From Xanthobacteraceae bacterium (lineage in GTDB: Bacteria > Pseudomonadota > Alphaproteobacteria > Rhizobiales > Xanthobacteraceae), in contig JBARER010000351.1 in NCBI GenBank assembly GCA_049796395.1, positions 898 through 64,897 of the forward strand: a stretch of 64,000 nucleotides of DNA. Direction: 5' to 3'. The notes beneath the pieces were generated by a model. It saw only the letters and a program-made list of their open reading frames with translations, had not been told where the DNA came from and ran no database searches. Made by a program: the position numbers and the translations under genes. Shown piece by piece: positions 6,944 through 52,775 of the stretch. Each line of letters begins with the position of its first letter. The stretch's first letter is position 1.

Positions 6944-8506
6944 CTAATTGTGGTTCTGAGCGAACAGCTGCCGGCCCATGGTGTTGAAACGCGCCTTCTG
7001 GTCGTCGCTGAGCGCGTTGTAGAAGTTCGCCAGCGCCGGCTGCACGGTCTCTACCGCCTGGAGCATCGCTTGCAACCGCTTGCCAACGGCGGCAAGCCGC
7101 TCAGGGGGCGTCGCCGGCGGCTCACTCGGGCAAGCAGCCTTGATTGTGTCGCCGGCTTGCGACAGCGCGGATTGCAGCGCATCGAGCTTGCTGCGCTGCG
7201 TATCGCTCGGATTCACGGCGCTGTCGATCTGATCGGTCGGCCAAGCCATGACTTTGGCGCCGCATTGCGCCTGGAGGCTGGGCGTATCCTGCGCATTTTC
7301 CGGCTTCGCATTGTTTTGCGTGGCCGGCGGCGCAATGTCGTTGAAACGGGCTTTTTGCTCGTCGGAGAGCGAGTCATAAAACTTTGTCAGCGGCGGGTTG
7401 ATGATATTCACCGCTTTGACGAGCGTCTGCAATTGCTCATGCATTTGATCGAGCCGGTCCGTCGGCGTGAAGGCCACGCTGGTCGGACAGTTCATCCTGA
7501 TCTGATGGCTCGCCTCGACGATGGCATTGCCGAGATCATCGAGAAGCGCGGTTTGCTGCTGATTCGGCTGAACGGCGTCTTGGATCTGATCGATCGGCCA
7601 GCCGGTCACCTCGGCCGCCTCGTCGTTGCAGCTTTGCGCCATGCCTTCCGTCAGCGTTGCCATGCGCGCCGGCGCGCCGGAACCCTGGACGTAGTCGCCG
7701 TAATCGTAAGGAGAGAACACCGCTTCATAGAGGTCGCCATAGCCGTAAACCCAGAAAGGATCAGCGTATTCGTAGTCGTCCGGCCACAGCGAATAATAGA
7801 AAAAGTCGCCATAGGCGTATGGCCAGAACAGCGGGCCGACCCAGCCGAGGTGGTCATAAGGGTGCCAGCCGTGGTGCTGCCAGTCGTGGCCCCAGAACGG
7901 CCGGAAGGCGGCATTGGTGGCCAACCGGCGACGATCTCTGAATCCTCTTGGACTGGCCGCGTTTGCCAGCGGCCGCACACGCGCATTGGTCAAGGCGCGG
8001 TTGTTGGCGTTCGCATTCAGGCCGCGGTTGCGCGCGTTCGACGTGCCGGCGGTGTTGTGAGCATGCCGATTACGACCGGGCGCGAACTGCGAAGCGGCAT
8101 TGGTCTTCACTGAAGAGCTTACGGCGCGGCTGCCGCGGGACCCCCGAACGTGCGCAATACGGTTTGCAGCGCCGAAATTATGATGATGCGCAACGGTGAC
8201 GTTACGGTGCGGAAGGCTGAGATTATTGTGCGCCGCTCTGACGCGTGGTGTGAAATGCGGGCGCGCGGCGCTGACATGCGGGGTGAAATGAGGCACTGCG
8301 GCACGAGGAGCGAAGTGAGGCACCGCACGGGGTGCGGCAATGTGGGGCGGGGCGTGCGGTGGCGGCGGATGCCCTCCCCCGTGGCTAGGAGCAGGACCGG
8401 GCTTTGCCGCCAGCGCAGTCCCCGTCACGCTGCAGAGCAATAAACCGGCCGCGGCTAGGACGGCGGCAGCTTTCCATTTTGTAATGTTGTCCGGCAATCT
8501 GCGCAT
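6944..8506 (-). CDS. secreted protein with a His/Pro/Arg-rich repeat region, an aromatic/acidic region and two tandem LTXXQ (Spy/CpxP-like) modules
   Basis: Start at MRRLPDNITKWKAAAVLAAAGLLLCSVTGTALA (signal peptide). It has repeats of the (A/V)PHF(A/T)P(R/H) type. A Trp/Tyr/Asp-rich block follows (WGHDWQHHGWHPYDHLGW...YGDFFYYSLWPDDYEYADPFWVYGYGDLY). It ends with two paralogous ~110-aa modules finishing in FY(D/N)(S/A)LSD(E/D)QKARFN. Confidence 0.7.
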   Translation of the reverse strand: MRRLPDNITKWKAAAVLAAAGLLLCSVTGTALAAKPGPAPSHGGGHPPPPHAPPHIAAPRAVPHFAPRAAVPHFTPHVSAARPHFTPRVRAAHNNLSLPHRNVTVAHHHNFGAANRIAHVRGSRGSRAVSSSVKTNAASQFAPGRNRHAHNTAGTSNARNRGLNANANNRALTNARVRPLANAASPRGFRDRRRLATNAAFRPFWGHDWQHHGWHPYDHLGWVGPLFWPYAYGDFFYYSLWPDDYEYADPFWVYGYGDLYEAVFSPYDYGDYVQGSGAPARMATLTEGMAQSCNDEAAEVTGWPIDQIQDAVQPNQQQTALLDDLGNAIVEASHQIRMNCPTSVAFTPTDRLDQMHEQLQTLVKAVNIINPPLTKFYDSLSDEQKARFNDIAPPATQNNAKPENAQDTPSLQAQCGAKVMAWPTDQIDSAVNPSDTQRSKLDALQSALSQAGDTIKAACPSEPPATPPERLAAVGKRLQAMLQAVETVQPALANFYNALSDDQKARFNTMGRQLFAQNHN

Positions 8507-32862: not shown

Positions 32863-35271
32863 GTGTCCAGCCGCTTCCCGACGCCGCAATTTTTCAATGC
32901 GCGAATCTCGCGGCGCGAACGCAGGTTCCGCCATGAGGCGGCGATCTGCGCAGTCGCCGTCGCGATCGGCTTGACCAGTGTCCATAAAGTCTATGCGCAA
33001 GCGCAACAGCCGTCGACCTCGCAGGATCAAGAAGCTCCGGCGCAGCAGGTAACGCCGCAATCGTCCGCGACCGCACCCCCCGCCGCGACGGCCGCAGCGC
33101 CAATTGCACCCGCCGCTCGTCGAACCCAGTTGCCGCAAATCACGGTCAACGCACCGAAACAAAAGCCAAAGACGGTACAACGGCGCACGCCGCAAGCGCC
33201 CCCGACTGTTGCGGCAACAATTAATCCGACGACGGCCGCCGAAAGAGCGCTCGACGCCAAGATGACCGGGCTCGATCAGGCCCGCAACAATCTGCTGCCC
33301 ACTATCGGCGCTTCGGCCTCGACCATCAGCCGCAGCGCGATCGAGAGATTGCCGCAAGGCGACAATACGCCGATCGACAAAGTTATCCTCCAACTGCCGG
33401 GCGTGTCCTACGATTCGGCAGTCTCCAATCCTTCTTTCCATGTCCGCGGCGAATACGCCAACGTGCAAATCCGGATCAACGGCGTCGTCTTGCCCGAGGG
33501 CGTTTCGGCTCTCGGTCCGTTCCTCGACACCAATTTCATCGGCAACATGTCGCTTCTGACCGGTTCGTTGCCGGCCGAATACGGCTTGCGCACCGCCGGC
33601 GTTCTCGACATCACCAGCCGGGCCTTTGCCGCACCAAGCGGCGAAGTCGGCCTCTATGGCGGCAGCCGGCAGACGTTCACGCCTAGCTTCGATTATGGCA
33701 GAGGAGTCGGCAACTCGGAGTATTTTGTCTCGGCGCGCGGCAATTGGAACGGCCTTGGCCTGGAAAATCCAACGCCGGGTTTAAACGCGATCCATGACGA
33801 AACCCAGCAAGGCCAGTTCTTCGGTTATGCCTCGACGCTACTCGACGAATCGACTCGGTTCAGCGTGATCTCGGCGGCATCCTACAGCGCGTTCCAAATT
33901 CCGAACACTCCCGGCCAGACGCCGCTGGGCGATTTTGGCCCCGCAACTTTGGATTCAACGGCGATCAACGAAAACGAATACGACTCCTACTACATGACAA
34001 TGGCGTCGCTACAAAAACACGGCACCGATGGCGATGCGCAACTCGCCGTCTATTCGCGCTACGCCGAAGTTCACTTCGTCCCAGACATATTAAACGACTT
34101 GGCATTCAACGACGTCGCCTCCGACGTCATACGGCAAAGCACGCTGACCGGCATGCAGGGCGATGGGTCGTATATCGTTAACGATCAACACACGCTGCGG
34201 GCCGGATTCGCGGTGACTGGCGAGCAAACCAACGTCACCAACGCGTCGACGGTGCTGCCTCTTGATGCCATGGGCAACCCACTGCCGACCCCGGAAGCAA
34301 TCACCGATCAAGCCTCGCTGCTCGGCTGGAATATCGGCACTTACATTCAGGACGAATGGAAGCTGACGAACCAATTGACGGTGAATATGGGCCTGCGCTT
34401 CGATCAACTATATCAGTTTGTCGATGCCAACCAGTTCAGCCCCCGTTTCGCCATCGTCTATAAGCCATTCGAAGGCACCACCATTCATGCCGGCTACGCG
34501 CGCTATTTCACGCCGCCGTACCAAGCACAAGCCACACAATCGAATATCGCTCTGTTCGCCAACACCACCAATCAACCGGATATTCCGATTGCCGATCCGG
34601 TCAAGCCTGAGCGCTCGAACTATTTCGATGCCGGCATCGATCAAACGGTGCTGCCCGGTCTCACCATTGGACTGGACGCGTATTACAAGGAAGCGAAGGA
34701 CATGCTCGACGACGGCCAGTTCGGCTCGGCCCTCGTGCTGACGCAATTCAATTATGCCCGCGGCTACAGCGAAGGCGCTGAATTTAAGCTCAAATATCAA
34801 GAAGGCAATTTCAACGCCTACGCCAACTTCGCCTACAATATAACAAGAGCGATCGACGTGGAATCAAACCAATACCTTATCGATATGGCCGATTACGAGT
34901 ATCTGCTCCACAATTATCACTACACCGACGACATGCAGCGAACGACCGGCTCGGCCGGTGTATCGTATCGCATCTACGATACGACGCTGACCGCGGACAT
35001 GATTTACGGCGGCGGCCTGCGCACCGGCGACCTCGAAGATAACGGCGTCCCGCCCAATTCGGAGCACACGACGCCCTATGCGGTCATCAACACCGGCATC
35101 GCACACGACTTCAAATGGTCGCCAGACTACAAACCGCTTACTGTGCGCTTCGACGTCGTCAACCTGTTCGATCAGATCTATGAACTGCGCACTGGTTCCG
35201 GCATCGGGGAGTTCGCTCCGCAATACGGCGCGCGCCGCGGCTACTATGTCGGGCTATCGCAAAAATTATGA
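32863..35271 (+). CDS. TonB-dependent outer membrane receptor
   Basis: 802 aa with a signal peptide ending VYA-QA and a Pro/Ala/Gln-rich linker. Plug domain motifs are present (IDKVILQLPGV..., RGEYANVQIRINGV, LP.EYG). It ends in the terminal aromatic typical of TBDRs (GLSQKL region after a beta-barrel). The GTG start is tentative. Confidence 0.85.
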   Translation: MSSRFPTPQFFNARISRRERRFRHEAAICAVAVAIGLTSVHKVYAQAQQPSTSQDQEAPAQQVTPQSSATAPPAATAAAPIAPAARRTQLPQITVNAPKQKPKTVQRRTPQAPPTVAATINPTTAAERALDAKMTGLDQARNNLLPTIGASASTISRSAIERLPQGDNTPIDKVILQLPGVSYDSAVSNPSFHVRGEYANVQIRINGVVLPEGVSALGPFLDTNFIGNMSLLTGSLPAEYGLRTAGVLDITSRAFAAPSGEVGLYGGSRQTFTPSFDYGRGVGNSEYFVSARGNWNGLGLENPTPGLNAIHDETQQGQFFGYASTLLDESTRFSVISAASYSAFQIPNTPGQTPLGDFGPATLDSTAINENEYDSYYMTMASLQKHGTDGDAQLAVYSRYAEVHFVPDILNDLAFNDVASDVIRQSTLTGMQGDGSYIVNDQHTLRAGFAVTGEQTNVTNASTVLPLDAMGNPLPTPEAITDQASLLGWNIGTYIQDEWKLTNQLTVNMGLRFDQLYQFVDANQFSPRFAIVYKPFEGTTIHAGYARYFTPPYQAQATQSNIALFANTTNQPDIPIADPVKPERSNYFDAGIDQTVLPGLTIGLDAYYKEAKDMLDDGQFGSALVLTQFNYARGYSEGAEFKLKYQEGNFNAYANFAYNITRAIDVESNQYLIDMADYEYLLHNYHYTDDMQRTTGSAGVSYRIYDTTLTADMIYGGGLRTGDLEDNGVPPNSEHTTPYAVINTGIAHDFKWSPDYKPLTVRFDVVNLFDQIYELRTGSGIGEFAPQYGARRGYYVGLSQKL

Positions 35272-36649: not shown

Positions 36650-36707
36650 AACTGGGCTGGCATCGCCGGCTTGTCATCGGCCAATTCCCAGGTAATATTC
36701 CATCAAT

Positions 36708-36756
36708 GGGGATGGGGTCCCCCTTATAACCGCCGATGAGGCTGATGACTCCTACC
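36708..36756 (+). promoter_or_regulatory. fluoride riboswitch aptamer (crcB RNA motif)
   Basis: GGGGAUGGGGUCCCCCUUAUAACCGCCGAUGAGGCUGAUGACUCCUACC reproduces the crcB-motif architecture. The parts are P1 GGGG/CCCC, conserved GAUG, the AAC junction, P3 GCC/GGC, conserved CUGAUGA, and the pseudoknot GGGGUC:GACUCC. It compares well with the T. petrophila aptamer GGGCGAUGAGGCCCGCCCAAACUGCCCUGAAAAGGGCUGAUGGCCUCUACUG. It sits upstream of crcB. Confidence 0.85.
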
Positions 36757-36792
36757 AGGCGCGTTGGCGTCGGTAGGAGCTTGCTTTTCTTC
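36749..36792 (+). terminator. riboswitch expression-platform terminator
   Basis: CTCCTACC (36749-36756) pairs with GGTAGGAG (36772-36779) and is followed by CTTGCTTTTCTT. The 5' arm overlaps the aptamer's 3' pseudoknot strand, so the aptamer and terminator folds are mutually exclusive (ON-switch logic). Confidence 0.7.
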
Positions 36793-36894: not shown

Positions 36895-37269
36895 ATGGGC
36901 TTTTTGATTGTTTTTCTCGGCGGCGGCCTCGGTGCCGCACTCCGGCACGGCGTCAACCTTGCGGCCGCCCGCGTCGTCGGCGGAGGATTTCCCTTCGGCA
37001 CGATGGCGATTAACGTGCTCGGCTCTTTTTTGATGGGCTTGCTTGTCGAATATTTCGCGCTGCGCCGCGGTCTGCCGCAACACTGGCGGCTGTTTCTAAC
37101 GACGGGCATGCTCGGTGGCTTCACCACCTTCTCGGCATTCTCGCTGGAGGCGGCGCTCCTCTACGAGCGCGGTGCGATCGCCAGCGCGGCGGCCTATGTC
37201 GGCGGTTCAGTCGTTCTAGCGATCGCTGCGCTCTTTGCCGGGCTGGCGATTGTCCGTATGCTCGGCTGA
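36895..37269 (+). CDS. crcB: fluoride efflux channel CrcB/FluC
   Basis: 124 aa, 4 TM, with GGGLGAALR, GT..IN..GSF..G and GG.TTFS.F motifs. Confidence 0.92.
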   Translation: MGFLIVFLGGGLGAALRHGVNLAAARVVGGGFPFGTMAINVLGSFLMGLLVEYFALRRGLPQHWRLFLTTGMLGGFTTFSAFSLEAALLYERGAIASAAAYVGGSVVLAIAALFAGLAIVRMLG

Positions 37270-37296: not shown

Positions 37297-38106
37297 ATGG
37301 ACCTGGGGATGACCGGCAAGACAGCACTCGTCACCGGCGCAAGCGAAGGCATCGGCAAAGCGATTGCGCGCGCTTTGGCCCATGAAGGCGTCGATGTCGC
37401 GGTTTGCGCCCGCCGTAAAGGCCCGCTGGAAGAAACCGCCGCCGAGATCGCCAAGGAGTCCGGCCGCAAGATCGTGGCCATTCCGGCCGATCTCACCAAG
37501 CCGGACGACGCGGCGAATTTCGTCCAGCAGGCGCACGCCGCCTTGGGCCGGATCGATATCCTGGTCAACAATGCCGGTTCGTCACCGGGCGGTGTGCTCG
37601 ATCACTTGAGCGAGGCGGATTGGGCGCAGTCGTTGCAGCTCAAATTCATGGGCTATGTGCGCTGCATGAAGCATGTGCTGCCGATCATGCAGAAGCAGAA
37701 GAAGGGCCGCGTGGTCAACCTGATCGGCAACGACGGCGTCAAGGTCTCCTATTGGGAGATTGCGCCGGGCGCCGCCAATGCCGCAGGGCAGAACTTGACC
37801 AAATCGCTGGCCAGCCAATACGGCAAGGACAATATCAGCTTCGTCGTGGTCAATCCCGGGCCGGTGCGCACCGAACGCTGGGCCGGGTTGGTCAAGGCGA
37901 TGGCGCGTGACATGAAGCTTTCGTACGAGGAAGCTGACAAGCTGGCGCCGGCCTCTATTCCGCTCGGCCGCATCGCCGAATGCGAGGAGGTCGCCAATCT
38001 GGTCACCTTTCTCGCATCCGACCTCGCCTTCTTCGTCAACGGCACCATGGTCGAGATCGACGGCGGCCAAGACAAGGTGCTGATGGACCGCATGCGCGAT
38101 CGCTGA
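37297..38106 (+). CDS. SDR-family oxidoreductase
   Basis: TGASEGIGKAIA cofactor motif, NNAG, and classical SDR length (269 aa). SD AGGGGAG upstream of the ATG at 37297. Confidence 0.88.
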   Translation: MDLGMTGKTALVTGASEGIGKAIARALAHEGVDVAVCARRKGPLEETAAEIAKESGRKIVAIPADLTKPDDAANFVQQAHAALGRIDILVNNAGSSPGGVLDHLSEADWAQSLQLKFMGYVRCMKHVLPIMQKQKKGRVVNLIGNDGVKVSYWEIAPGAANAAGQNLTKSLASQYGKDNISFVVVNPGPVRTERWAGLVKAMARDMKLSYEEADKLAPASIPLGRIAECEEVANLVTFLASDLAFFVNGTMVEIDGGQDKVLMDRMRDR

Positions 38107-38140
38107 TCGCCACCCTTTTCCTCCACGATCTCAAATAACG

Positions 38141-38190
38141 ACGGCCTCTTTTCCTTCTCCCCCTGCCCTTGTGGGAGAGGAATGCCGCCC
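38141..38190. repeat. REP-like GC-rich palindromic intergenic element
   Basis: TTCCTTCTCCCcctgcccttgtGGGAGAGGAA is an imperfect hairpin of the CTCCCC...TGTGGGAGAGG type common in intergenic regions of related genomes. It lies just after the SDR stop. Confidence 0.4.
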
Positions 38191-38243
38191 CGCGTTTCGC
38201 CGCACTGTCGTTTATTGAGAGGCCGCTATTTCTTTGCAGCCGA

Positions 38244-38273
38244 TGATCCAGCCGCAGAAGCCAAACGTAGCAT
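38244..38273 (+). promoter_or_regulatory. candidate RpoE(ChrR)-type ECF promoter upstream of the DUF2177 gene
   Basis: TGATCC (38244-38249), then 18 nt, then TAGCAT. The architecture is the same as the two motifs in the rpoE divergent region. The -10-like element is 33 nt upstream of the ATG at 38306. Confidence 0.5.
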
Positions 38274-38305
38274 TTGGCCATTGCGCAGCAGGATTGAGGC
38301 CGCTC

Positions 38306-38707
38306 ATGACCTATTTTGCCGCTTATATTTCGATTCTTGTCGTGTTCGGAGCCATCGATGCGGGATGGCTGCGGATCATGGGCCACATCCTATATCGCCC
38401 GGTACTGGGTGATATCCTGCTGCCGGATCTCCGGCTGGCGCCGGCAATCGCGTTCTATCTGCTCTACCCCATCGGCATATTGGTGTTCTCGGTCATTCCC
38501 GCATTGCGCTCCGGATCGGCTTTCAACGCATTTTTGTACGCGGTTTTATTTGGAGCGCTCGCTTACGCTACCTATGATCTGACCAATTACGCGACTTTGC
38601 GAAACTGGACATTACAGATCACCATCATCGACATCTGCTACGGCGCGCTGGCCGCTGGCATCGCAGCGGCGGCGGCCTATCTTGTGGCCCACGCCTTTTC
38701 GCCCTGA
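38306..38707 (+). CDS. DUF2177-family integral membrane protein
   Basis: About 133 aa, 4 TM (MTYFAAYISILVVFGAIDAGWL...YATYDLTNYATLRNW). ATG at 38306 lies downstream of the promoter-like motif. The ORF-track start at 38234 lies upstream of the motif. Confidence 0.7.
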   Translation: MTYFAAYISILVVFGAIDAGWLRIMGHILYRPVLGDILLPDLRLAPAIAFYLLYPIGILVFSVIPALRSGSAFNAFLYAVLFGALAYATYDLTNYATLRNWTLQITIIDICYGALAAGIAAAAAYLVAHAFSP

Positions 38708-39744
38708 TTAGTGCCGCGGCCAAACGGTGTAAGGCGATAATGGCTCACGCCCCATTCCTCGCCACCGGCGTGACCGAACAATCCCATCGTCGCGAGAAAG
38801 AATAGCCGCCAGCGTCGGCGCCAGAGCCCGCCATCGCGGCCATAGACGCGTTTGAGAACCGCCTTCACTTCATCGGTATGATTGTCGAAGTTTTTCAGCC
38901 AATCTTCGGCGGTGCGGCGGTAATGCTCGCCATTCCATTGCCATTCCGCGTCGACCGTGAAGCAATCCGGAAATTGCCGGATCAATCCGTGGCTCGGCAT
39001 GATGCCGCCGGTAAAATAATGCTGCGCGATCCAGTCTTCCTTGTCTTCCGGGCGGAAGCGATACGATGCGTGCGCATTGCTGAAGACGTGAACGAACATA
39101 CGCCCATCGTGTTCCAGGCAATCGCGCATGCGTTGCAGAAGCGGCCGCCAATTGGACATATGCTCGAACATCTCGATCGAAACGACACGATCGAACTGGC
39201 CGGTGGGTAAAAACTCGTTCATGTCGGCGGTGATGACGTCGAGATTGGACAGTCCCCGCGAGTGCGCCACACACGCGATATAGTCGTGCTGCGACCGCGA
39301 ATTCGACACGGCGGTAATCTGAGCCGCCGGATAATGCTCCGCCATCCATAAAGACAAAGCACCCCAGCCGCAGCCGAGTTCAAGAATCCGTTGGCCGTCC
39401 GCGAGCGCGGCATGCGCCGCGGTCAGCTGCAAGGCCCGCTCTTCCGCCGCCGCCAGCGTGGCGATCCCCTCGTCGTAGTAGCAGCACGAGTATTTGCGCC
39501 GCGGTCCCAAGATCAGGGCGAAGAACTGCTCCGGTACCTCATAGTGCTGGGCGTTGGCTGCGGCGACATGGGTGGCGATAGGATAGGACGCCATGTCGGC
39601 GGCAAAACGCCGATCGGCGGAAGCCTCTTCGCCGCGAAGCCGCCCGCTCGTGCGCCCGACAAGCCAGTCGATCGTGGCCTGCGTCACTGTATCCGGCCAA
39701 GGCACGCGCTCGCCGACGCCAATCATCGATTGCAGAAATGTCAT
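38677..39744 (-). CDS. cyclopropane-fatty-acyl-phospholipid-synthase-family SAM-dependent methyltransferase (short paralogue)
   Basis: SAM motif ILELGCGWGALSLWMAE and CFA-synthase-family C-terminal region (SIEMFEHM...). ATG at 39744 overlaps the stop of the DUF1295 gene (ATGA). The 3' end overlaps the DUF2177 gene by 31 nt. Confidence 0.85.
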   Translation of the reverse strand: MTFLQSMIGVGERVPWPDTVTQATIDWLVGRTSGRLRGEEASADRRFAADMASYPIATHVAAANAQHYEVPEQFFALILGPRRKYSCCYYDEGIATLAAAEERALQLTAAHAALADGQRILELGCGWGALSLWMAEHYPAAQITAVSNSRSQHDYIACVAHSRGLSNLDVITADMNEFLPTGQFDRVVSIEMFEHMSNWRPLLQRMRDCLEHDGRMFVHVFSNAHASYRFRPEDKEDWIAQHYFTGGIMPSHGLIRQFPDCFTVDAEWQWNGEHYRRTAEDWLKNFDNHTDEVKAVLKRVYGRDGGLWRRRWRLFFLATMGLFGHAGGEEWGVSHYRLTPFGRGTNQGEKAWATR

Positions 39745-40574
39745 CTCCGCTCTCCTACCTTGGTCAGGCGCGGCGGCGCCGGAAAAAACGCATTGGTGCG
39801 CGCCCGATAAGCGCGAAATGCGCCGGGCCGCCGTATCAGCATGTGCGCTTCGAGCGGCGGGATGCCGGAGACATGCACCAGCAGCCAGTACATGCAAAGT
39901 GGGCCTCCCAGCGCAACGAATCCCCACGGATAGCCGCCACCGGGAGCGATGGCCAACAGCGGATAAGCGAGCCAGCCGAACCATTCGAAGAAGTAATTCG
40001 GATGCCGCGACCATGACCACAGTCCAGCGTCGCAAACCCGATCGCGATTGTCCGGGTCGGCGCGAAAGCGCCGCAGCTCGAAATCGGCGAGGCCTTCGCC
40101 GCCGATGCCGATCATCAGAACGACGACGCCGAGGAAATCCTGAACGCCTAGGCCCGGCGATGGATTAAACGCAGCGAGTATCATCGCCAGCGCCAGCGGA
40201 ATGCTGACCAATGCCTGTTTCTGCAACAGCCAGAACATTTGCCGCGACGCATCGTCCCCCCAGTCGCGAATGAGCTTGGCGTAGCGCGGATCATCGGTAA
40301 TGCCGGCCGTGCGCAGCGCGATATGAACGCCAAGCCGCAGCGACCAGATCGCGATCAACGAAGCCACCAGCGCCTGACGCTCGGTTATGCCGCCGAATAG
40401 CAGCCAAGGGGTCAGCGCACCGCCACAGCCGACAACGCCGAGACCGAAAGTCCAGATCGTATCGACCCATCCGGAGTTTCGCGTGCTGCGCCAAACCAGC
40501 CAGGCTCCGAACATGATTACCGAAAGCGCCGCGCTGACGGCAACAAAGACGGTTCCGAATTGCTGCGCCGTCAT
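39741..40574 (-). CDS. DUF1295-family membrane protein (steroid-5-alpha-reductase/ICMT-like fold)
   Basis: 277 aa polytopic protein with the signature GLWSWSRHPNYFFEWFGW. There are 4-nt overlaps with both neighbours. Confidence 0.8.
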   Translation of the reverse strand: MTAQQFGTVFVAVSAALSVIMFGAWLVWRSTRNSGWVDTIWTFGLGVVGCGGALTPWLLFGGITERQALVASLIAIWSLRLGVHIALRTAGITDDPRYAKLIRDWGDDASRQMFWLLQKQALVSIPLALAMILAAFNPSPGLGVQDFLGVVVLMIGIGGEGLADFELRRFRADPDNRDRVCDAGLWSWSRHPNYFFEWFGWLAYPLLAIAPGGGYPWGFVALGGPLCMYWLLVHVSGIPPLEAHMLIRRPGAFRAYRARTNAFFPAPPRLTKVGERR

Positions 40575-41512
40575 GGCTTAGCGGCCGCAGGTTCGGCCCG
40601 GGTACGGAGCGTTCCGACCATGAACCGGTCGGCGTCGCGTAATGCCGGCGCAAGGAAGCGCAGCGGGTCGGCGAACGATCCAATGATGGTGAGGTGGCCG
40701 ACACGCGGATAGGTCGCGACCTCCGCTCGGTCCCCAGAGGTGCGCAGGCGCGCCGCCAAGCGCGTGGCATTGCCTGGGTCTACCACATTGTCGTTGGCGC
40801 CCGTCAGCAGCAATGCCGGCGGCGCTCCGGGCGAGACATAAGAGATCGGCTGGGTCGTCGGCCGATCGGCACCGCCGAATATCGTCTGCAGCGTCGGATC
40901 GCGCAACGGCAGGAAATCGTACGGCCCGGAAATCCCGACCAGACCGGCGAGATCGCGGTCCGGCGCGAGGCCGACCTCCCCCAGCCAGCGCGGGTCGAGC
41001 GCGAGCATCGCTGCGATATAAGCGCCCGCCGAATGCCCCATGACAAAAAGCTCGCTGGGATTGCCGCCATAACGTGCTGCGTTGTCGCGGGCCCAGCGCA
41101 CCGCATGTGCGCCGTCCTCGAGAAAGGCGGGATAGCGAACCTCGGGGTAGAGCCGGTAATCTGGGACGACGGTCAGATAACCGCGCCGCGCCAATGCGGT
41201 GCCGAGAAACGTGTAGAGCGCCTTATCGCCGGTCTGCCACGAGCCGCCATAAAAGAAGACGACGACAGGCGCGTCAGTGGCGCCGGCGGGCCGATAGACG
41301 TCGAGCGTTCGCCGGGGTCCGTCCCCGTAAGCGACCGAGCGCGTGATCTCAACACCGGAGGTGGAGACTAAAAAGTTCAAGACCGAGGCGGGAGAGCACC
41401 CGGTAAGAAGCAAGCTCGCCAACACGCCGGCGGCCCATGGCGGGCCACGCCGGCCGCCGCGCGGTTTGGCGCTCGAGGCGGCGCCGGCCCGACACTCGCA
41501 AGCGCGACTCAT
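40571..41512 (-). CDS. alpha/beta-hydrolase (esterase/lipase-type) lipoprotein
   Basis: Signal plus lipobox (LASLLLTGCSP), oxyanion-type FFYGGSW, and nucleophile elbow GHSAGA. It starts 9 nt downstream of the chrR stop. Confidence 0.85.
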   Translation of the reverse strand: MSRACECRAGAASSAKPRGGRRGPPWAAGVLASLLLTGCSPASVLNFLVSTSGVEITRSVAYGDGPRRTLDVYRPAGATDAPVVVFFYGGSWQTGDKALYTFLGTALARRGYLTVVPDYRLYPEVRYPAFLEDGAHAVRWARDNAARYGGNPSELFVMGHSAGAYIAAMLALDPRWLGEVGLAPDRDLAGLVGISGPYDFLPLRDPTLQTIFGGADRPTTQPISYVSPGAPPALLLTGANDNVVDPGNATRLAARLRTSGDRAEVATYPRVGHLTIIGSFADPLRFLAPALRDADRFMVGTLRTRAEPAAAKP

Positions 41513-41521
41513 CGCGGCCGC

Positions 41522-42166
41522 TCAGAGACGGATGAAGGGTTGCAGCAGCCGGCCGACCCAGCTCTGCAGCTCGATATTGCCCTGCAACGCCACCAGGCAG
41601 ACGCAAGCCGCGCCGTCCTCGACGACCGGATTATGCTCGACCTGCTCGTCGGCTTCGTCGAAATCGCCGGCGCCGAAGCGGCCAAAATCGTGTCGGAAGG
41701 CACCCTCGAACACGCAGGTCCATTCCGTTCCGCTATGCCGGTGGCGCGGCAAACGCGTTCCAGCCGCAGCCTTCAACATGAAAACGCGGACGCCATCGTC
41801 CGAGGCGACGTCGATCGAACGCCACTGCACATTACGGCCGATCCAGCGCCATGAACCCAAAGCGTAAGCCGCCAGCGGCGCCGGCAGCGCGCCGGCTTCC
41901 GCAGGTTGCGGATGTAGCGACACCGGGACACTTTGGCCGGCCGTGGTCAGTTGCGCCATGGCGCGCTCCAGCGCGCCGGCGGACATCTCCGCGCGCGCAG
42001 CCGTCTCGAGCAGGACGCCGCCGACATGTTCGAACGACAACATCGCCTCCCGGCAATGCGGGCACAGCGACAGGTGCGCGGCAACCACGACCGCACGCCC
42101 CTCATCGAGCGTGCCGGAGGCGAACGCCGCCAATGTCAGATCGCTTGGATGATGCGTGATGCTCAT
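41522..42166 (-). CDS. chrR: ChrR-family anti-sigma-E factor (ZAS N-domain plus cupin C-domain)
   Basis: Zinc anti-sigma motif H-x3-C-x2-C (HLSLCPHC) and C-terminal cupin metal ligands (RHRHSGTEWT...VEHNP). The start overlaps the sigma gene stop (ATGA). Confidence 0.9.
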   Translation of the reverse strand: MSITHHPSDLTLAAFASGTLDEGRAVVVAAHLSLCPHCREAMLSFEHVGGVLLETAARAEMSAGALERAMAQLTTAGQSVPVSLHPQPAEAGALPAPLAAYALGSWRWIGRNVQWRSIDVASDDGVRVFMLKAAAGTRLPRHRHSGTEWTCVFEGAFRHDFGRFGAGDFDEADEQVEHNPVVEDGAACVCLVALQGNIELQSWVGRLLQPFIRL

Positions 42167-42732
42167 GTCGGCTCACCCAGGAGATTGTTCAAACGCGTCA
42201 TCGCCAAACGCAGCCGCGACTTGACTGTGCCCAGCGGCAGATCGAGAAGCTTGGCAATGTCGCCGTGGGCGCGGCCCTCGAAGAAGGAAAGCTGGACCAC
42301 ACGGACTTGTTCCTCGGGCAGTTCGCGAAGTGCGTCGCGTAGCCGCTGATCGCGCTCCGCAACGTCGAGCGAAGCGTCGGGCCGCTCGGGCGCGTCGGCT
42401 TCGATAGCCTCATAAAGCGAAAACAGCTTTGCCCGCCGATCTCTCCGCAAGCGGTCCACCCGCAGGTTACGGGCGATCGTGTAGATCCAGGCCGCCGGGC
42501 TGGCGCGCGTCCGATCGAATTGCCCGGCCTTTCGCCACACCATCAGCATCGTATCCTGCGCAATGTCCTCGGCCACCTCAGCCGCAGCGCCGCGCCGCAT
42601 CAGCATAGCTTTGATGCGGCCGGCATAACATTCGAACAGCGCAGCGAAGGCCGCGCGGTCCCCTTCGGCCGCGATCGCGCCGATCCATCGAGCCGGATCG
42701 GAACCCAAAGCGCCATTACCTTCATCGTGCAT
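42163..42732 (-). CDS. rpoE: ECF RNA polymerase sigma factor, RpoE (ChrR-regulated) type
   Basis: From MHDEGNG... the protein parallels R. sphaeroides RpoE as I remember it (DRAAFAALF..., QDTMLMVWRKAGQFD..RASPAAWIYTIARN, LPLGTVKSRLRLA). The longer ORF-track N-terminus (to 42900) would run across its own promoter-like motif. Confidence 0.9.
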   Translation of the reverse strand: MHDEGNGALGSDPARWIGAIAAEGDRAAFAALFECYAGRIKAMLMRRGAAAEVAEDIAQDTMLMVWRKAGQFDRTRASPAAWIYTIARNLRVDRLRRDRRAKLFSLYEAIEADAPERPDASLDVAERDQRLRDALRELPEEQVRVVQLSFFEGRAHGDIAKLLDLPLGTVKSRLRLAMTRLNNLLGEPT

Positions 42733-42842
42733 GCGCGCTCCATGCCACAGCCAATCCTGCCGGACGTAAAGCGGCCTGCAGTCGGCCTGTACCGGCGGCA
42801 ACGCAGGCTGCCATTGCCTTGTAATCGCGACTTGCATGCCCG

Positions 42843-42872
42843 GGGATACGACCGGCGGCAGCATTTGGATCA
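42843..42872 (-). promoter_or_regulatory. candidate autoregulated RpoE-type promoter for rpoE-chrR-hydrolase-DUF1295-methylase
   Basis: The minus strand reads TGATCC (42872-42867), then 18 nt, then TATCCC. Confidence 0.5.
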
Positions 42873-42886
42873 GGCCGAATTGGCGG

Positions 42887-42916
42887 TGATCCAAGCCCAA
42901 AAATCAATCGTAACTT
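42887..42916 (+). promoter_or_regulatory. candidate RpoE-type promoter for the FAD-oxidoreductase/DUF1365/methylase operon
   Basis: TGATCC (42887-42892), then 18 nt, then TAACTT, 59 nt upstream of the ATG at 42975. It lies back-to-back with the minus-strand copy, inside the inverted repeat TTGGATCA-N14-TGATCCAA (42865-42894). Confidence 0.55.
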
Positions 42917-42974
42917 CCTCGCCATGCAAAAAGCGGCCGATTTGACGCGGCGGTCTTTCAGGTGAAACGGACGA

Positions 42975-44330
42975 ATGATGCAGCGCAACGCTGTCCGGAG
43001 AAAGAATATTGCGGTCATCGGCACCGGCATTTCCGGGATGGCGGCGGCGTGGCTCCTGAGCCACGCCCACGACGTCACCGTATACGAGAGCGATCGCCGT
43101 GTGGGCGGACATTCCAACACTGTTAACGTTGCAACGGCAAACGGACCGATTGCCGTCGATACGGGGTTTATCGTTTATAACGAACTGACCTATCCCAACC
43201 TGACCGCCTTATTCGATCACCTCGGCGTACCGACACAACTGTCCGACATGTCGCTCGCAGTCTCTCTAGCCGGTGGCGAGCTCGAATATTCCGGCAGCCT
43301 GTCCGGTCTGTTTGCCGACAAGCGCAATCTGCTGCGGCCGCGATTCTGGTCGATGCTGCGTGACCTGCAACGCTTCTATCGCGAGGCGCCTCGCGACCTG
43401 GCGATGCTCGAACAGACGCACATCACGCTCGGCGAGTATCTTGAGGCCGGCGCTTACGGCATAGCCTTTCGCGACGATCATCTGCTGCCGATGGCGGCCG
43501 CAATCTGGTCGGCGCCAGCAACCAAGATCCTTAGCTACCCCGCGGCGTCCTTCATCCGCTTTCAAGACAGCCACGGTCTGCTCAAGCTGAGCAATCGGCC
43601 GCCCTGGCGAACCGTTCTTGGCGGCAGCCGCGCCTATGTCGAGCGCCTGACGGAATCCTTCGCGGATCGCATCCGCCGTGCGACGGCCGTCACCGCCGCG
43701 CGCCGAAGCGACGGCAAAGTCAAAGTCCGCGACAGCTCCGGGGCAATCGAGACGTTCGATCACGCGATCATTGCCAGCCACGCCGATCAAGCCTTGGCGA
43801 TGCTGGACGATCCGACAGCTGAGGAAAAGCGGCTGCTTGGGGCCTTCCACTACTGCAGTAATGTCGCGGTGCTGCATTCCGATGCGACTTTGATGCCAAA
43901 ACGACGCGCGGTGTGGTCAAGCTGGAACTATATCGGCGGCCGCGACGATGGCGATCGATGCGCAACCGTCACCTACTGGATGAACTCCTTGCAGCGCATT
44001 CCGCGGGACACGCCCCTGTTCGTCACGCTCAATCCGCCGCGTGCGCCACGCGCGGAGCACTACCGTGAGACTTATCACCACCCACTATTCGATACCGCGG
44101 CGATTTCGGCGCAGCGGCAGCTATGGTCGCTGCAGGGGGTACGCAATACCTGGTTCTGCGGGGCCTATTTCGGCGCCGGCTTTCATGAAGACGGACTGCA
44201 GGCCGGACTTGCCGTCGCCGAAGCGATCGGCGGCTGCCGCCGGCCATGGACCGTGGCGAACGAATCTGGGCGCATTGCCATCGGCCCCCTGCCCGCGTCG
44301 CAATTGCCGCAAACGGAGCTCGCGGCATGA
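42975..44330 (+). CDS. NAD(P)/FAD-dependent oxidoreductase (amine-oxidase-like, COG2907 type; UfaD-like candidate)
   Basis: Dinucleotide-binding motif IAVIGTGISGMAAAWLL...VTVYE...RVGGH. 451 aa. Confidence 0.85.
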   Translation: MMQRNAVRRKNIAVIGTGISGMAAAWLLSHAHDVTVYESDRRVGGHSNTVNVATANGPIAVDTGFIVYNELTYPNLTALFDHLGVPTQLSDMSLAVSLAGGELEYSGSLSGLFADKRNLLRPRFWSMLRDLQRFYREAPRDLAMLEQTHITLGEYLEAGAYGIAFRDDHLLPMAAAIWSAPATKILSYPAASFIRFQDSHGLLKLSNRPPWRTVLGGSRAYVERLTESFADRIRRATAVTAARRSDGKVKVRDSSGAIETFDHAIIASHADQALAMLDDPTAEEKRLLGAFHYCSNVAVLHSDATLMPKRRAVWSSWNYIGGRDDGDRCATVTYWMNSLQRIPRDTPLFVTLNPPRAPRAEHYRETYHHPLFDTAAISAQRQLWSLQGVRNTWFCGAYFGAGFHEDGLQAGLAVAEAIGGCRRPWTVANESGRIAIGPLPASQLPQTELAA

Positions 44331-45118
44331 GCCATCTTCGCTCTACGTTATACGTTGGATCGGTGATCCACCGGCGGCTGAAGCCACACCCGCATCGCCT
44401 GCGTTACCGGGTATTTTGGCTGCTGCTCGACCTCGACGAAATCGATCGCTTGAGCAAAAGCCTGCGGCTGTTTTCGCATAACCGCTTCAATGCCGTCAGC
44501 TTCCATGACGCCGATCATGGCGACGAGAGCGGCCGCCCGTTGCGCGACCAGGTCGAGCAGCATCTTATCCAAGCCGGTATCGGCTGGAGCGGCGGTACCA
44601 TCCGGCTCCTCTGCATGCCGCGGATTTTCGGTTGCGGCTTCAACCCGCTGAGCGTCTACTTCTGCCATCACCGCGGCGGCGAGTTCGCAGCCGTGCTCTA
44701 CGAGGTCCACAATACATTCGGCGAACGCCACAGCTATCTGATACCCGCCGGGGAAAACCCGGGCACGGTCATCGAGCAGCAATGCCGGAAGGTATTTTAC
44801 GTCTCGCCGTTCATGGACATGGACCTGACATATGAGTTCCGCACCGCCGTCCCGGATGAGCGCGTGTCGGTGGCGATCAGAGCGGCGGCGGCGGACGGCG
44901 TAATGCTCGCTGCGGCACTATCGGGACGACGCCGGGACATTTCGGACTTAAACCTGCTGAGCCTCCTCATCACTCATCCGCTGCTGACGCTGAAGGTCAT
45001 AACCGCAATTCATTGGAATGCGTTGCGTATGCTGTTGAAAGGCTACCGACTGCGCCCCCGGCCAACTCCTCCGACGCTGCCGGTCACCAGCGTGCGCGTC
45101 GGAGGCCGATCGCCATGA
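44327..45118 (+). CDS. DUF1365-family protein (UfaO-like candidate)
   Basis: LYVGSVIHRRLKPHPHRLRYRVFWLLLDLDEID is the DUF1365 N-terminal signature. ATGA overlaps with both neighbours. Confidence 0.85.
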   Translation: MSHLRSTLYVGSVIHRRLKPHPHRLRYRVFWLLLDLDEIDRLSKSLRLFSHNRFNAVSFHDADHGDESGRPLRDQVEQHLIQAGIGWSGGTIRLLCMPRIFGCGFNPLSVYFCHHRGGEFAAVLYEVHNTFGERHSYLIPAGENPGTVIEQQCRKVFYVSPFMDMDLTYEFRTAVPDERVSVAIRAAAADGVMLAAALSGRRRDISDLNLLSLLITHPLLTLKVITAIHWNALRMLLKGYRLRPRPTPPTLPVTSVRVGGRSP

Positions 45119-46341
45119 GTTTTTCCAATCCATCCTATCCATCGCACGACGGCGCCGGACAAGCGCGGCAGCGGCCGAGCATGCTCGGCCGGCTGCTCGA
45201 CCGATCTCTGCCGCGCTTGCAAACCGGACGACTCGATATCGCCTTGCCGAACATGGACATTATCGCACGCCGCGGCGAGCGCCTCGGACCGGAAGCGACA
45301 ATGGCGATGCGGCGTTGGCGCGCGCTGTGGCGCTTATTGTCCGAGGGCGAGGACGGCTTCTGCAACGGCTATATCGACGGCGACTGGACAACGTCCGACC
45401 TGGTGAAGCTTCTCGACCTCGGCATGGACAACGAAACAGCCCTCGATCCGCATACCAGGAAATGGCTGCTCAGCTTCCTGCGTAACCGTATCGGCCACAC
45501 GCTTCGCGCCAATACGCGAAACGGCAGCCGGCGCAACATCGCCGCGCATTACGATCTCGGCAACGATTTCTTCCGGCCGTGGCTCGATGCCGGCATGAAT
45601 TACTCTGCGGCGCTCTATCTTGGCGACGAGGCGCTCGAGCGCGCGCAAGAGCAAAAACTCGATCGGATCGGAGAGCTTCTGCAACTGCGGGGCGGCGAGA
45701 CCATATTGGAGATCGGCTGCGGCTGGGGGGCGTTGGCCGAACGGCTGATCCGGCATCATGGTGCGTCGGTGCGCGGCATAACACTATCCACCGAGCAATT
45801 GCGCTATGCCACGACGCGCTTAACCGCCGAAATTCACGACGGCCGCGCCGAAATGCGGCTGCAGGACTATCGCGACGTCACCGACCGCTTCGATCGCATC
45901 GCTTCGATCGAAATGGTCGAGGCGGTCGGCGAGCGTTATTGGCCGGTTTATTTCGCAAAACTCCGCGCCTGCCTCGCCGCCGGTGGCGTTGCGCTCCTGC
46001 AAGCCATCACCATCGATGACGCACGTTTCGCGCAATACCGCAAGCGGCCCGATTTCATCCAGCGCCGCATTTTCCCCGGCGGCATGCTGCCGACGCGCGC
46101 AATCCTCGAGCGCGAAGCGGCCCGGGCCGGGCTGAAGCTCACGTATCACCAATCGTTCGGCGACAGCTACGAGCGGACCTTGCACGAATGGCGCCGCCGC
46201 TTCTTGCAGGCGCGGCCGAAGCTCGAAGCCTTGGGACTAGATGCACGTTTTCAGCGGTTGTGGGACTATTATCTGGCCTATTGCGAAGTCGGCTTTCGTC
46301 ACCGCGTCGTCGATGTCGGGTTCTTTCAGTTTCGCGGCTGA
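45115..46341 (+). CDS. cyclopropane-fatty-acyl-phospholipid-synthase-family SAM-dependent methyltransferase (long paralogue)
   Basis: SAM motif ILEIGCGWGALAERL plus SIEMVEAVGERYW. 408 aa. It is translationally coupled to the DUF1365 gene. Confidence 0.88.
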   Translation: MSFSNPSYPSHDGAGQARQRPSMLGRLLDRSLPRLQTGRLDIALPNMDIIARRGERLGPEATMAMRRWRALWRLLSEGEDGFCNGYIDGDWTTSDLVKLLDLGMDNETALDPHTRKWLLSFLRNRIGHTLRANTRNGSRRNIAAHYDLGNDFFRPWLDAGMNYSAALYLGDEALERAQEQKLDRIGELLQLRGGETILEIGCGWGALAERLIRHHGASVRGITLSTEQLRYATTRLTAEIHDGRAEMRLQDYRDVTDRFDRIASIEMVEAVGERYWPVYFAKLRACLAAGGVALLQAITIDDARFAQYRKRPDFIQRRIFPGGMLPTRAILEREAARAGLKLTYHQSFGDSYERTLHEWRRRFLQARPKLEALGLDARFQRLWDYYLAYCEVGFRHRVVDVGFFQFRG

Positions 46342-51944: not shown

Positions 51945-52775
51945 TCACGCCGGCGCAAGCGCTGCCGCAGGAACGGCCAGCACTTGCGGTAACGGTGTCT
52001 GCAACGTCGCCGCAATAAAAGCGTCGACGTCGCGCAGCACCGGAACAAATTCGCGCAAGATCGGCGCGATCGCGGCAACGATAATAAAATGCCCGACGCG
52101 CCGGTAGCTCTTGACGGTGGCGGCGTTGCCGGCGGCGACCAGTCGCGCCGCGAGCCGGACGGAATTGCCGGGCTCCACCAGTCGGTCGCGGCCGCCGGTG
52201 ATCAGCAAGGACGGCGGCGCTCCCGGCGCCACATGGAAAATCGGCTGCGTCTCGGGCCGGTTGGCGCCGCCGAAAATCACTTTCAAGACTTCGTCGCGCA
52301 ACGGCAAGTAATCGTAAGGACCGGCAAGGCCGATCAGGCCGGCGATGTCGCGGCCAGGATCGAGCCCGACCTTTTGCAGCCAACGAGGATCGAGCGCGAG
52401 CATCGCCGCAATATGGGCGCCGGCCGAATGACCCTTCAGAAATATTTTGCCCGGATCGCCGCCGAAGCCGGCGATGTTATCCTTGACCCAGCGCACGACC
52501 TGCGCGCCGTCTTCCAAAAATTCCGGATAAAGCACTTCCGGATAGATACGATAGTCCGGCAGCACGGCGACATAGCCGCGGCGCGCCAGCGCCTTGGTGA
52601 CGTAGCGGTAAAGCTTCTTGTTGCCGGACCGCCAAGCCCCGCCATAAAAAAACACCACGACCGGTGCCGGGGCTGCACCGACCGGCCGGCAGATATCGAG
52701 CCGGTGCCGCGATTGTGCGGCGTAAGCAATCGATTGCGTAAGTTTAATGCCGAAGCCCATGCGACCGCCGAACAA
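51945..52775 (-). CDS. alpha/beta-hydrolase (esterase/lipase-type), cytoplasmic paralogue of 40571-41512
   Basis: Collinear with the lipoprotein hydrolase (VVVFFYGGAWRSG, GHSAGAHIAAMLALDPRWL, GPYDYLPLRD, RVGH) but with no signal peptide or lipobox. Confidence 0.85.
   Translation of the reverse strand: MFGGRMGFGIKLTQSIAYAAQSRHRLDICRPVGAAPAPVVVFFYGGAWRSGNKKLYRYVTKALARRGYVAVLPDYRIYPEVLYPEFLEDGAQVVRWVKDNIAGFGGDPGKIFLKGHSAGAHIAAMLALDPRWLQKVGLDPGRDIAGLIGLAGPYDYLPLRDEVLKVIFGGANRPETQPIFHVAPGAPPSLLITGGRDRLVEPGNSVRLAARLVAAGNAATVKSYRRVGHFIIVAAIAPILREFVPVLRDVDAFIAATLQTPLPQVLAVPAAALAPA

Follow-up and report, generated by a model that had tools for sequence, protein, structure and literature searches.

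Three predicted sigmaE (ECF11) promoters at an rpoE-chrR locus of a soil Xanthobacteraceae bacterium

We analysed a 64,000-nt stretch of DNA from a Xanthobacteraceae bacterium (positions 898 to 64,897 of contig JBARER010000351.1, assembly GCA_049796395.1), hereafter called the window and numbered from its first letter. The window carries an rpoE-chrR gene pair, encoding an extracytoplasmic function (ECF) sigma factor of group ECF11, RpoE or sigmaE, and its anti-sigma factor ChrR. Around this pair lie genes for lipid-modifying enzymes and membrane proteins, and three copies of a bipartite motif, TGATCC-N16-CGTA, that are predicted to act as sigmaE promoters. The locus comprises the following features:

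38244–38269, plus strand: predicted sigmaE (ECF11) promoter of the DUF2177 gene; exact TGATCC-N16-CGTA, CGTA at 38266–38269.
42872–42847, minus strand: predicted autoregulatory sigmaE promoter of rpoE-chrR; exact TGATCC-N16-CGTA, CGTA at 42850–42847.
42887–42912, plus strand: predicted sigmaE promoter of a ufaD-ufaO-ufaM-like operon; exact TGATCC-N16-CGTA, CGTA at 42909–42912.
42163–42837, minus strand: rpoE, ECF11 sigma factor, 224 amino acids from ATG 42837 or 189 from internal ATG 42732; Pfam Sigma70_r2 and Sigma70_r4_2.
41522–42166, minus strand: chrR, anti-sigma-E factor, overlapping the rpoE stop codon; Pfam zf-HC2 and Cupin_7, NCBIfam TIGR02451.
40571–41512, minus strand: BD-FAE / alpha-beta hydrolase (esterase), starting 9 nt past the end of chrR; Pfam PF20434, E = 2.4e-30.
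39741–40574, minus strand: DUF1295 membrane protein, overlapping the esterase gene by 4 nt; Pfam PF06966, E = 2.2e-59.
38677–39750, minus strand: second CMAS-type S-adenosylmethionine-dependent fatty-acyl methyltransferase, last in the rpoE operon; Pfam CMAS, E = 2.8e-42.
42975–44330, plus strand: FAD-dependent amine-oxidase-type oxidoreductase, UfaD-like by family and gene order; Pfam Amino_oxidase, NAD_binding_8 and DAO.
44246–45118, plus strand: DUF1365 protein, UfaO-like; Pfam PF07103, E = 1.7e-80, the model beginning at residue 35.
45112–46341, plus strand: methyltransferase of the cyclopropane fatty acid (CFA) synthase family, UfaM-like by position, with conserved synteny; Pfam CMAS, E = 5.5e-79.
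38306–38707, plus strand: DUF2177 membrane protein of 133 amino acids, a single-gene unit; Pfam PF09945, E = 1.1e-37.

Besides the two elements, the three motif copies have an A after TGATCC in common, so that the shared form is TGATCCA-N15-CGTA. The exact pattern TGATCC-N16-CGTA occurs three times on the two strands of the window, whereas 0.12 occurrences were expected from dinucleotide-preserving shuffles, none of 100 of which reached three. All three sites are intergenic and each is oriented toward the adjoining gene, with the end of CGTA lying 36 nt before the start codon of the DUF2177 gene, 62 nt before that of the ufaD-like gene and 9 nt before ATG 42837 of rpoE. The original prediction had described the same sites as TGATCC-N18-TA, and its coordinates were reproduced: TGATCC at 38244–38249, 42872–42867 and 42887–42892, with TAGCAT at 38268–38273, TATCCC at 42848–42843 and TAACTT at 42911–42916, respectively. 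Its reading of the -10 element as a hexamer beginning with TA was not borne out; a position weight matrix (PWM) built from orthologous sites shows that the conserved element is CGTA followed by a weak preference for A or G.

The looser TGATCC-N18-TA pattern has five matches in the window (0.82 expected). Two of these, at 14481 (plus strand) and 16474 (minus strand), had been overlooked when all other TGATCC copies were reported to lie inside genes; both are indeed intragenic, and the three promoter candidates are the only intergenic copies. One further TGATCC, previously placed at 7767–7772, lies at 7758–7763 on the minus strand. A variant with an N15-CGTA spacing at 33478 (minus strand) is likewise intragenic. 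The three intragenic matches fall in genes supported by Pfam, encoding an OEP efflux protein and an HlyD-type protein and, in antisense, a TonB-dependent receptor. The PWM, for which 32 orthologous sites were used and the window sites left out, ranked the rpoE site (33.0 bits), the DUF2177 site (24.3 bits) and the ufaD-like site (23.5 bits) as the top three in the window; the training sites had themselves been found with the pattern, so that the scores mainly show that nothing else in the window resembles these sites. The next-best match scored 15.5 bits and lies inside a 1116-aa open reading frame (ORF), and no other match in the window exceeded the maximum over 50 shuffles (17.8 bits), giving no sign of further regulon members there. 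A promoter scan found no sigma-70-like promoter in the three intergenic regions, a terminator scan returned terminator-like matches that were not above shuffle expectation and were all intragenic, and Rfam reported nothing in or near the three regions.

The motif corresponds to the published consensus of RpoE/ChrR-type (ECF11) sigma factors, in agreement with the earlier recognition of TGATCC as the -35 element of Rhodobacter sphaeroides sigmaE promoters. TGATCC-N16-CGTA is the consensus of Pseudomonas syringae PSPTO_1043, defined by chromatin immunoprecipitation sequencing (ChIP-seq) (PMC5507510). Shewanella oneidensis RpoE2 uses TGATCC and CGTA(A/T)T, with start sites just downstream as determined by primer extension (PMC4336711), and the R. 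sphaeroides consensus is given as 'TGATCC(N15)GCGTA' (PMC5036791).

The proteins encoded next to the motif belong to the corresponding families. RpoE is a group IV sigma factor in which Pfam detects only regions 2 and 4. Its best match among solved structures is R. sphaeroides sigmaE (2q1z_A, 'RpoE, ECF SigE'; E = 1.6e-36), collinear over residues 12–183, and the region 4.2 helix is near-identical between the two (LPLGTVKSRLRLA here, LPLGTIKSRIRLA in R. sphaeroides). No ECF11-specific NCBIfam model reached its cut-off with RpoE. ChrR scored 202.3 bits against TIGR02451, the 'ChrR family anti-sigma-E factor' (cut-off 124.5), and combines an N-terminal zinc-binding anti-sigma domain with a C-terminal cupin domain. 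Among solved structures it matches R. sphaeroides ChrR best (2z2s_B, E = 8e-37), and in the pairwise alignment its HH, H-x3-C-x2-C and H-x-H-x3-E motifs are in register with the R. sphaeroides sequence.

We then compared the locus with its relatives. Scans with RpoE returned 39 genome loci and 50 metagenome loci, of which ~25 are ECF11 relatives with RpoE 45–89% identical; the footprint was drawn from 9–10 genome loci and ~12 metagenome loci. The nearest genome locus, L001, comes from a Xanthobacteraceae metagenome-assembled genome with an RpoE 89% identical. Xanthobacteraceae-type loci (L001–L007, L013, L016, L041, L043–L047, L050 and L053) have the gene order of the window and carry the motifs at the same three places in the same orientations, while spacers and flanks diverge. 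Wherever upstream sequence is available in a related locus, the rpoE promoter motif is kept, and the motif accompanies rpoE-chrR in every related locus. In the alignment of the rpoE/ufaD spacer (A2), no variation is seen in TACG and TGGATCAC (the ufaD promoter in reverse complement), TGATCCA, CGTA or ATGCA. Upstream of the DUF2177 gene (A1, ten sequences), ATCC of the -35 element, CGTA, the ribosome-binding GA(G) and the start ATG are invariant; nine of the ten sequences retain the T and G of TGATCC, and L005 has CAATCC. All other columns of the two alignments vary, those of the spacer between the -35 and -10 elements included. A plasmid collection queried with the 8.3-kb locus gave only an uninformative 93-nt match in a Rhizobium cfa-family gene. 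The idea that the locus is a horizontally acquired 'island' was rejected: its GC content (0.57–0.68) and skew are the same as those of its flanks, and the locus is syntenic across the family.

These observations make it highly probable that RNA polymerase containing the ECF11 RpoE encoded at the same locus uses the three motifs as promoters. The regulon originally proposed, autoregulation plus two target operons, is thus supported, and the combination of an autoregulated rpoE-chrR and a divergent operon matches the R. sphaeroides core regulon, which includes an operon divergent from rpoE-chrR that begins with RSP1091 as well as a CFA-synthase homologue (PMC3546557). Three points weigh on the other side. 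A sequencing-run search found the window sequence only in four soil-metagenome DNA runs and in no RNA runs, so that the start sites, RpoE dependence and inducing signals proposed here are argued from homology. Some orthologous sites have one mismatch (TGATCT, AGATCC), and the L005 DUF2177 site has two. Finally, with 64 kb of the genome visible, another ECF sigma factor with a similar motif could be encoded elsewhere. Carried further, this last point would mean that the sites are real ECF-type promoters read by such a paralogous sigma factor, alone or together with the adjacent RpoE, and similar -35/-10 motifs do occur among ECF families. We consider this improbable, since ECF sigma factors are typically autoregulated from a directly upstream promoter and such a motif is present here; moreover, the sites match the ECF11 consensus exactly, RpoE has the region 4.2 helix of R. 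sphaeroides sigmaE nearly unchanged, and the motif travels with rpoE-chrR wherever the pair was found among the related loci.

Two of the three sites stand back to back between rpoE and the ufaD-like gene, where the original prediction had noted an inverted repeat. A perfect 8-nt repeat is present in the window (TTGGATCA at 42865–42872, N14, TGATCCAA at 42887–42894), with the two hexamers 14 nt apart; the repeat itself, however, is not conserved. Orthologs place the two TGATCC elements anywhere between 3 and 93 nt apart (3, 8, 13, 14, 26, 32, 44–46, 68 and 93), without helical periodicity. Because the gap varies in this way, the inverted repeat is best read as an incidental by-product of two divergent promoters that both begin with TGATCCA, and not as a palindromic operator. 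Divergent sigmaE promoters between rpoE and an RSP1091-type operon have already been described for R. sphaeroides (PMC3546557). It might still be argued that TTGGATCA-N14-TGATCCAA is the operator of a dimeric transcription factor serving both divergent operons, with the third copy as a half-site: the repeat is perfect, it lies between divergent genes, the 14-nt gap recurs in several relatives, and 13–14 nt is the commonest value. We regard an operator as very unlikely. Besides conflicting with the variable gap, it does not account for CGTA, which lies exactly 16 nt from TGATCC and is just as invariant; in addition, a lone oriented copy precedes the DUF2177 gene, and the motif is the published ECF promoter consensus. 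Chance occurrence of a short motif in GC-rich DNA, suggested by the abundance of TGATCC alone (53 copies in the window, ~39 expected), can practically be dismissed, since three exact composite matches were found where 0.12 were expected, all are intergenic and correctly oriented, and >20 related loci preserve them strictly amid diverging surrounding sequence.

Two variations on the divergent arrangement were seen among relatives. In L003 (5801–5870), about four tandem copies of an ~18-nt unit (CAGGTCTGGATCACCTGG) lie between the divergent promoters, multiplying the GGATCA form of the -35 element and widening the gap to 68 nt. The Rhodospirillaceae-type loci L008, L009 (1427–1494) and L056 (427–494) have a second back-to-back TGATCC-N16-CGTA pair with a 16-nt gap, one member of which faces a gene for a short-chain dehydrogenase/reductase (SDR), recalling RSP1087; back-to-back placement therefore recurs in this regulon.

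The rpoE promoter motif also bears on where translation of rpoE begins. The original prediction held that the motif argues against the long rpoE ORF. It does exclude the longest ORF (TTG 42900), but the short start at 42732 does not follow from it, given a conserved in-frame ATG at 42837–42835 (minus strand). This ATG follows CGTA by 9 nt, at the predicted transcription start, and is in frame with rpoE; inspection of the 9 nt between CGTA and the ATG revealed no evident ribosome-binding motif of the GGAG type. All 20 orthologs examined have an ATG 8–9 nt after CGTA, and in each of them its frame runs on into sigma region 2 without a stop codon, although the distance from the ATG to the region 2 anchor takes 13 different values (56–80 codons); ATG(CA) after CGTA is borne by L001–L006, L013 and L040–L060. 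As each independent length change in an untranslated stretch would keep the frame with a probability of about one in three, retention of the frame by chance over so many lengths is very unlikely, roughly 1e-5 by our estimate. The N-terminal stretch itself shows substitutions spread evenly over codon positions (13/9/11 and 15/11/13), and its nucleotide identity is 0.69, versus 0.90 for the core (window compared with L001). The even spread indicates that the extension is not a conserved domain and that only the frame, not the peptide, is kept.

We therefore read rpoE as probably translated from a leaderless AUG at +1 (42837). The internal start may be used as well: Met 42732 is preceded five nucleotides upstream by GGAG, 19 of 20 orthologs share it, and the resulting 189-aa product is collinear with the 184-aa R. 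sphaeroides sigmaE. No such ATG is conserved across orthologs at the ufaD or DUF2177 promoters. At the ufaD promoter of the window, a 13-codon ORF (MQKAADLTRRSFR; 42924–42965, plus strand) starts 11 nt after CGTA; its beginning, ATGCAAAAAGCG, is common to the closest relative, L001, and to none of the other orthologs, and it is probably not significant. Taken together, we lean somewhat toward a picture in which a clade centred on the Xanthobacteraceae combines a leaderless rpoE AUG at +1, an unconstrained in-frame extension of 30–47 codons, a possible shorter isoform from 42732 and the DUF2177 gene as a stand-alone sigmaE target. If this is true, induction of the stress sigma factor would hinge on leaderless (70S-type) initiation or on which of two isoforms is made.

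For the DUF2177 gene, transcription would begin near 38279–38280, judging from the position of the motif. The shorter start at 38306, favoured in the original prediction on account of the motif, was upheld: Pfam covers residues 4–126 of 133, ortholog matches run from residue 1, and neither the GAG of the ribosome-binding site nor the ATG varies. DUF2177 orthologs that are 62–95% identical and have their own motif were found in L001–L004, L006, L007, L013, L016, L041, L045 and L047. In the distant relatives L011 (Rhizobium), L014 (Caulobacteraceae) and L060/L061, the DUF2177 gene directly follows chrR on the same strand and has no motif of its own. The link of DUF2177 to the regulon is thus old and, in the present clade, runs through a separate promoter.

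At its 3' end, the DUF2177 gene converges on that of the CMAS-like methyltransferase with a 31-nt overlap (38677–38707), in which no intrinsic terminator was detected; two sigmaE-driven transcripts would consequently be mutually antisense at their ends. On the upstream side, an imperfect inverted repeat of ~20 nt (38129–38149, TCTCAAATAACGACGGCCTCT; 38207–38225, AGAGGCCG..GTCGTTTATTGAGA; spacer ~60 nt) lies between an SDR gene ending at 38106 and the DUF2177 promoter, and could be a terminator or an element resembling repetitive extragenic palindromes. It does not align with the upstream DNA of the orthologs, several of which instead have a palindromic GGTGAC-N2-ATGTCAAG block (A1). Further upstream lies a fluoride riboswitch (36699–36761, plus strand; Rfam RF01734, 57.8 bits, E = 3.8e-14), the only Rfam match and unrelated to the sigmaE locus, followed by a crcB/FluC fluoride channel gene (36895–37269, plus strand; Pfam CRCB).

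The minus-strand unit that begins with rpoE is tightly packed, its genes overlapping by 4–10 nt or separated by a 9-nt gap. L047 and L053 lack the esterase gene at this position. A second BD-FAE/alpha-beta-hydrolase gene, a paralog of this esterase gene, lies at 51945–52775 (minus strand) with no sigmaE motif nearby. The start of the second methyltransferase gene overlaps the end of the DUF1295 gene with conserved synteny, and its product could be FufM-like or RSP1089-like. In the divergent operon, the DUF1365 protein likely starts at ATG 44327, overlapping the ufaD stop codon, and the UfaM-like protein gave NCBIfam matches below the equivalog cut-offs. The three Ufa-type Pfam families stand in the order of Rhodopseudomonas palustris RPA2571-RPA2570-RPA2569, with the FAD oxidoreductase at the RSP1091 position. 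In R. sphaeroides, RSP1091 is UfaD and RSP1090 is UfaO (DUF1365), which together with the methylase UfaM make furan fatty acids, and the three ufa genes of R. palustris are adjacent as RPA2571-2569 (PMC7380195). Family and gene order thus suggest UfaD/UfaO/UfaM orthology and synthesis of furan fatty acids here. The R. sphaeroides ufa genes are under sigmaE control (PMC7380195; PMC3546557), and in Chlamydomonas DUF1365, DUF2177, DUF1295 and CFA-synthase genes are induced during acclimation to singlet oxygen (PMC4067076).

A working model of the response can be put together from these parts. In the absence of stress, zinc-binding ChrR would keep RpoE inactive, as expected for its family. Singlet oxygen or organic peroxides would lead to loss of ChrR, by analogy with R. 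sphaeroides and Caulobacter, and the freed RpoE would contact the promoter with region 4 at TGATCC (-35) and with region 2 at CGTA (-10), with transcription starting ~8–11 nt downstream of CGTA. Three units would then be switched on. The first, comprising rpoE-chrR and the esterase, DUF1295 and CMAS-like methyltransferase genes, would provide positive autoregulation with negative feedback built in through chrR. The second, the divergent ufaD-ufaO-ufaM-like operon, would by homology place furan fatty acids in membrane lipids, and the third would supply the DUF2177 membrane protein. The expected outcome would be more RpoE and ChrR, lipid-modifying enzymes and membrane proteins. Under singlet oxygen, ChrR turnover in R. 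sphaeroides is promoted by the proteins that RSP1091 (UfaD) and RSP2144 (UfaM, a CFA-synthase homologue) encode (PMC3546557), and by analogy the same feedback loop may operate here.

The analysis allows the regulon of an uncultured soil Xanthobacteraceae lineage to be annotated with confidence; this lineage appears to carry an RpoE-ChrR response to singlet oxygen or peroxide coupled to lipid modification of the furan-fatty-acid type. DUF2177, DUF1295, the BD-FAE esterase and the second CMAS-like methyltransferase are predicted co-regulated members worth functional study. Knowledge of ECF11 promoters is unchanged by it: the regulon prediction is correct and ordinary, describing one more member of a well-described system, and the pattern suggesting a leaderless rpoE start is the only modestly novel aspect beyond routine annotation.

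Among known systems, those of P. syringae (PSPTO_1043-ChrR) and S. oneidensis (RpoE2-ChrR) have the identical consensus TGATCCnnnnnnnnnnnnnnnnCGTA and are autoregulated, the former supported by ChIP-seq and quantitative reverse-transcription PCR and the latter by primer extension. Their targets likewise include CFA-synthase-type and photoreactivation-linked genes and, in P. syringae, an esterase/lipase. Unlike the present locus, they are gamma-proteobacterial and have larger regulons, other targets (katG, photolyases, glutathione peroxidase) and a different gene organisation. With the furan fatty acid pathway (UfaM/UfaD/UfaO) of R. sphaeroides and R. palustris, the locus shares the three families and the RPA2571-2569 order, and its function is predicted from family and synteny. 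Several features set it apart from the R. sphaeroides sigmaE-ChrR (ECF11) singlet-oxygen regulon. Here, as at R. palustris RPA2571-2569, ufaO is directly followed by a CFA-synthase-type gene; it is rpoE-chrR and not the divergent operon that carries the esterase, DUF1295 and second methyltransferase genes; DUF2177 is served by a separate promoter; the 64-kb window contains no photolyase or rpoHII target; and rpoE may be leaderless with a 35-aa N-terminal extension. The host, moreover, is a non-phototroph-like soil Xanthobacteraceae known from a metagenome-assembled genome, in which photosynthesis genes were not searched for. The two systems nevertheless agree in their sigma and anti-sigma families (2q1z, 2z2s), in the consensus TGATCC-N15/16-(G)CGTA, in an autoregulated rpoE-chrR, and in a divergent operon that, like RSP1091-RSP1087, starts with the FAD-oxidoreductase (UfaD) and DUF1365 (UfaO) genes.

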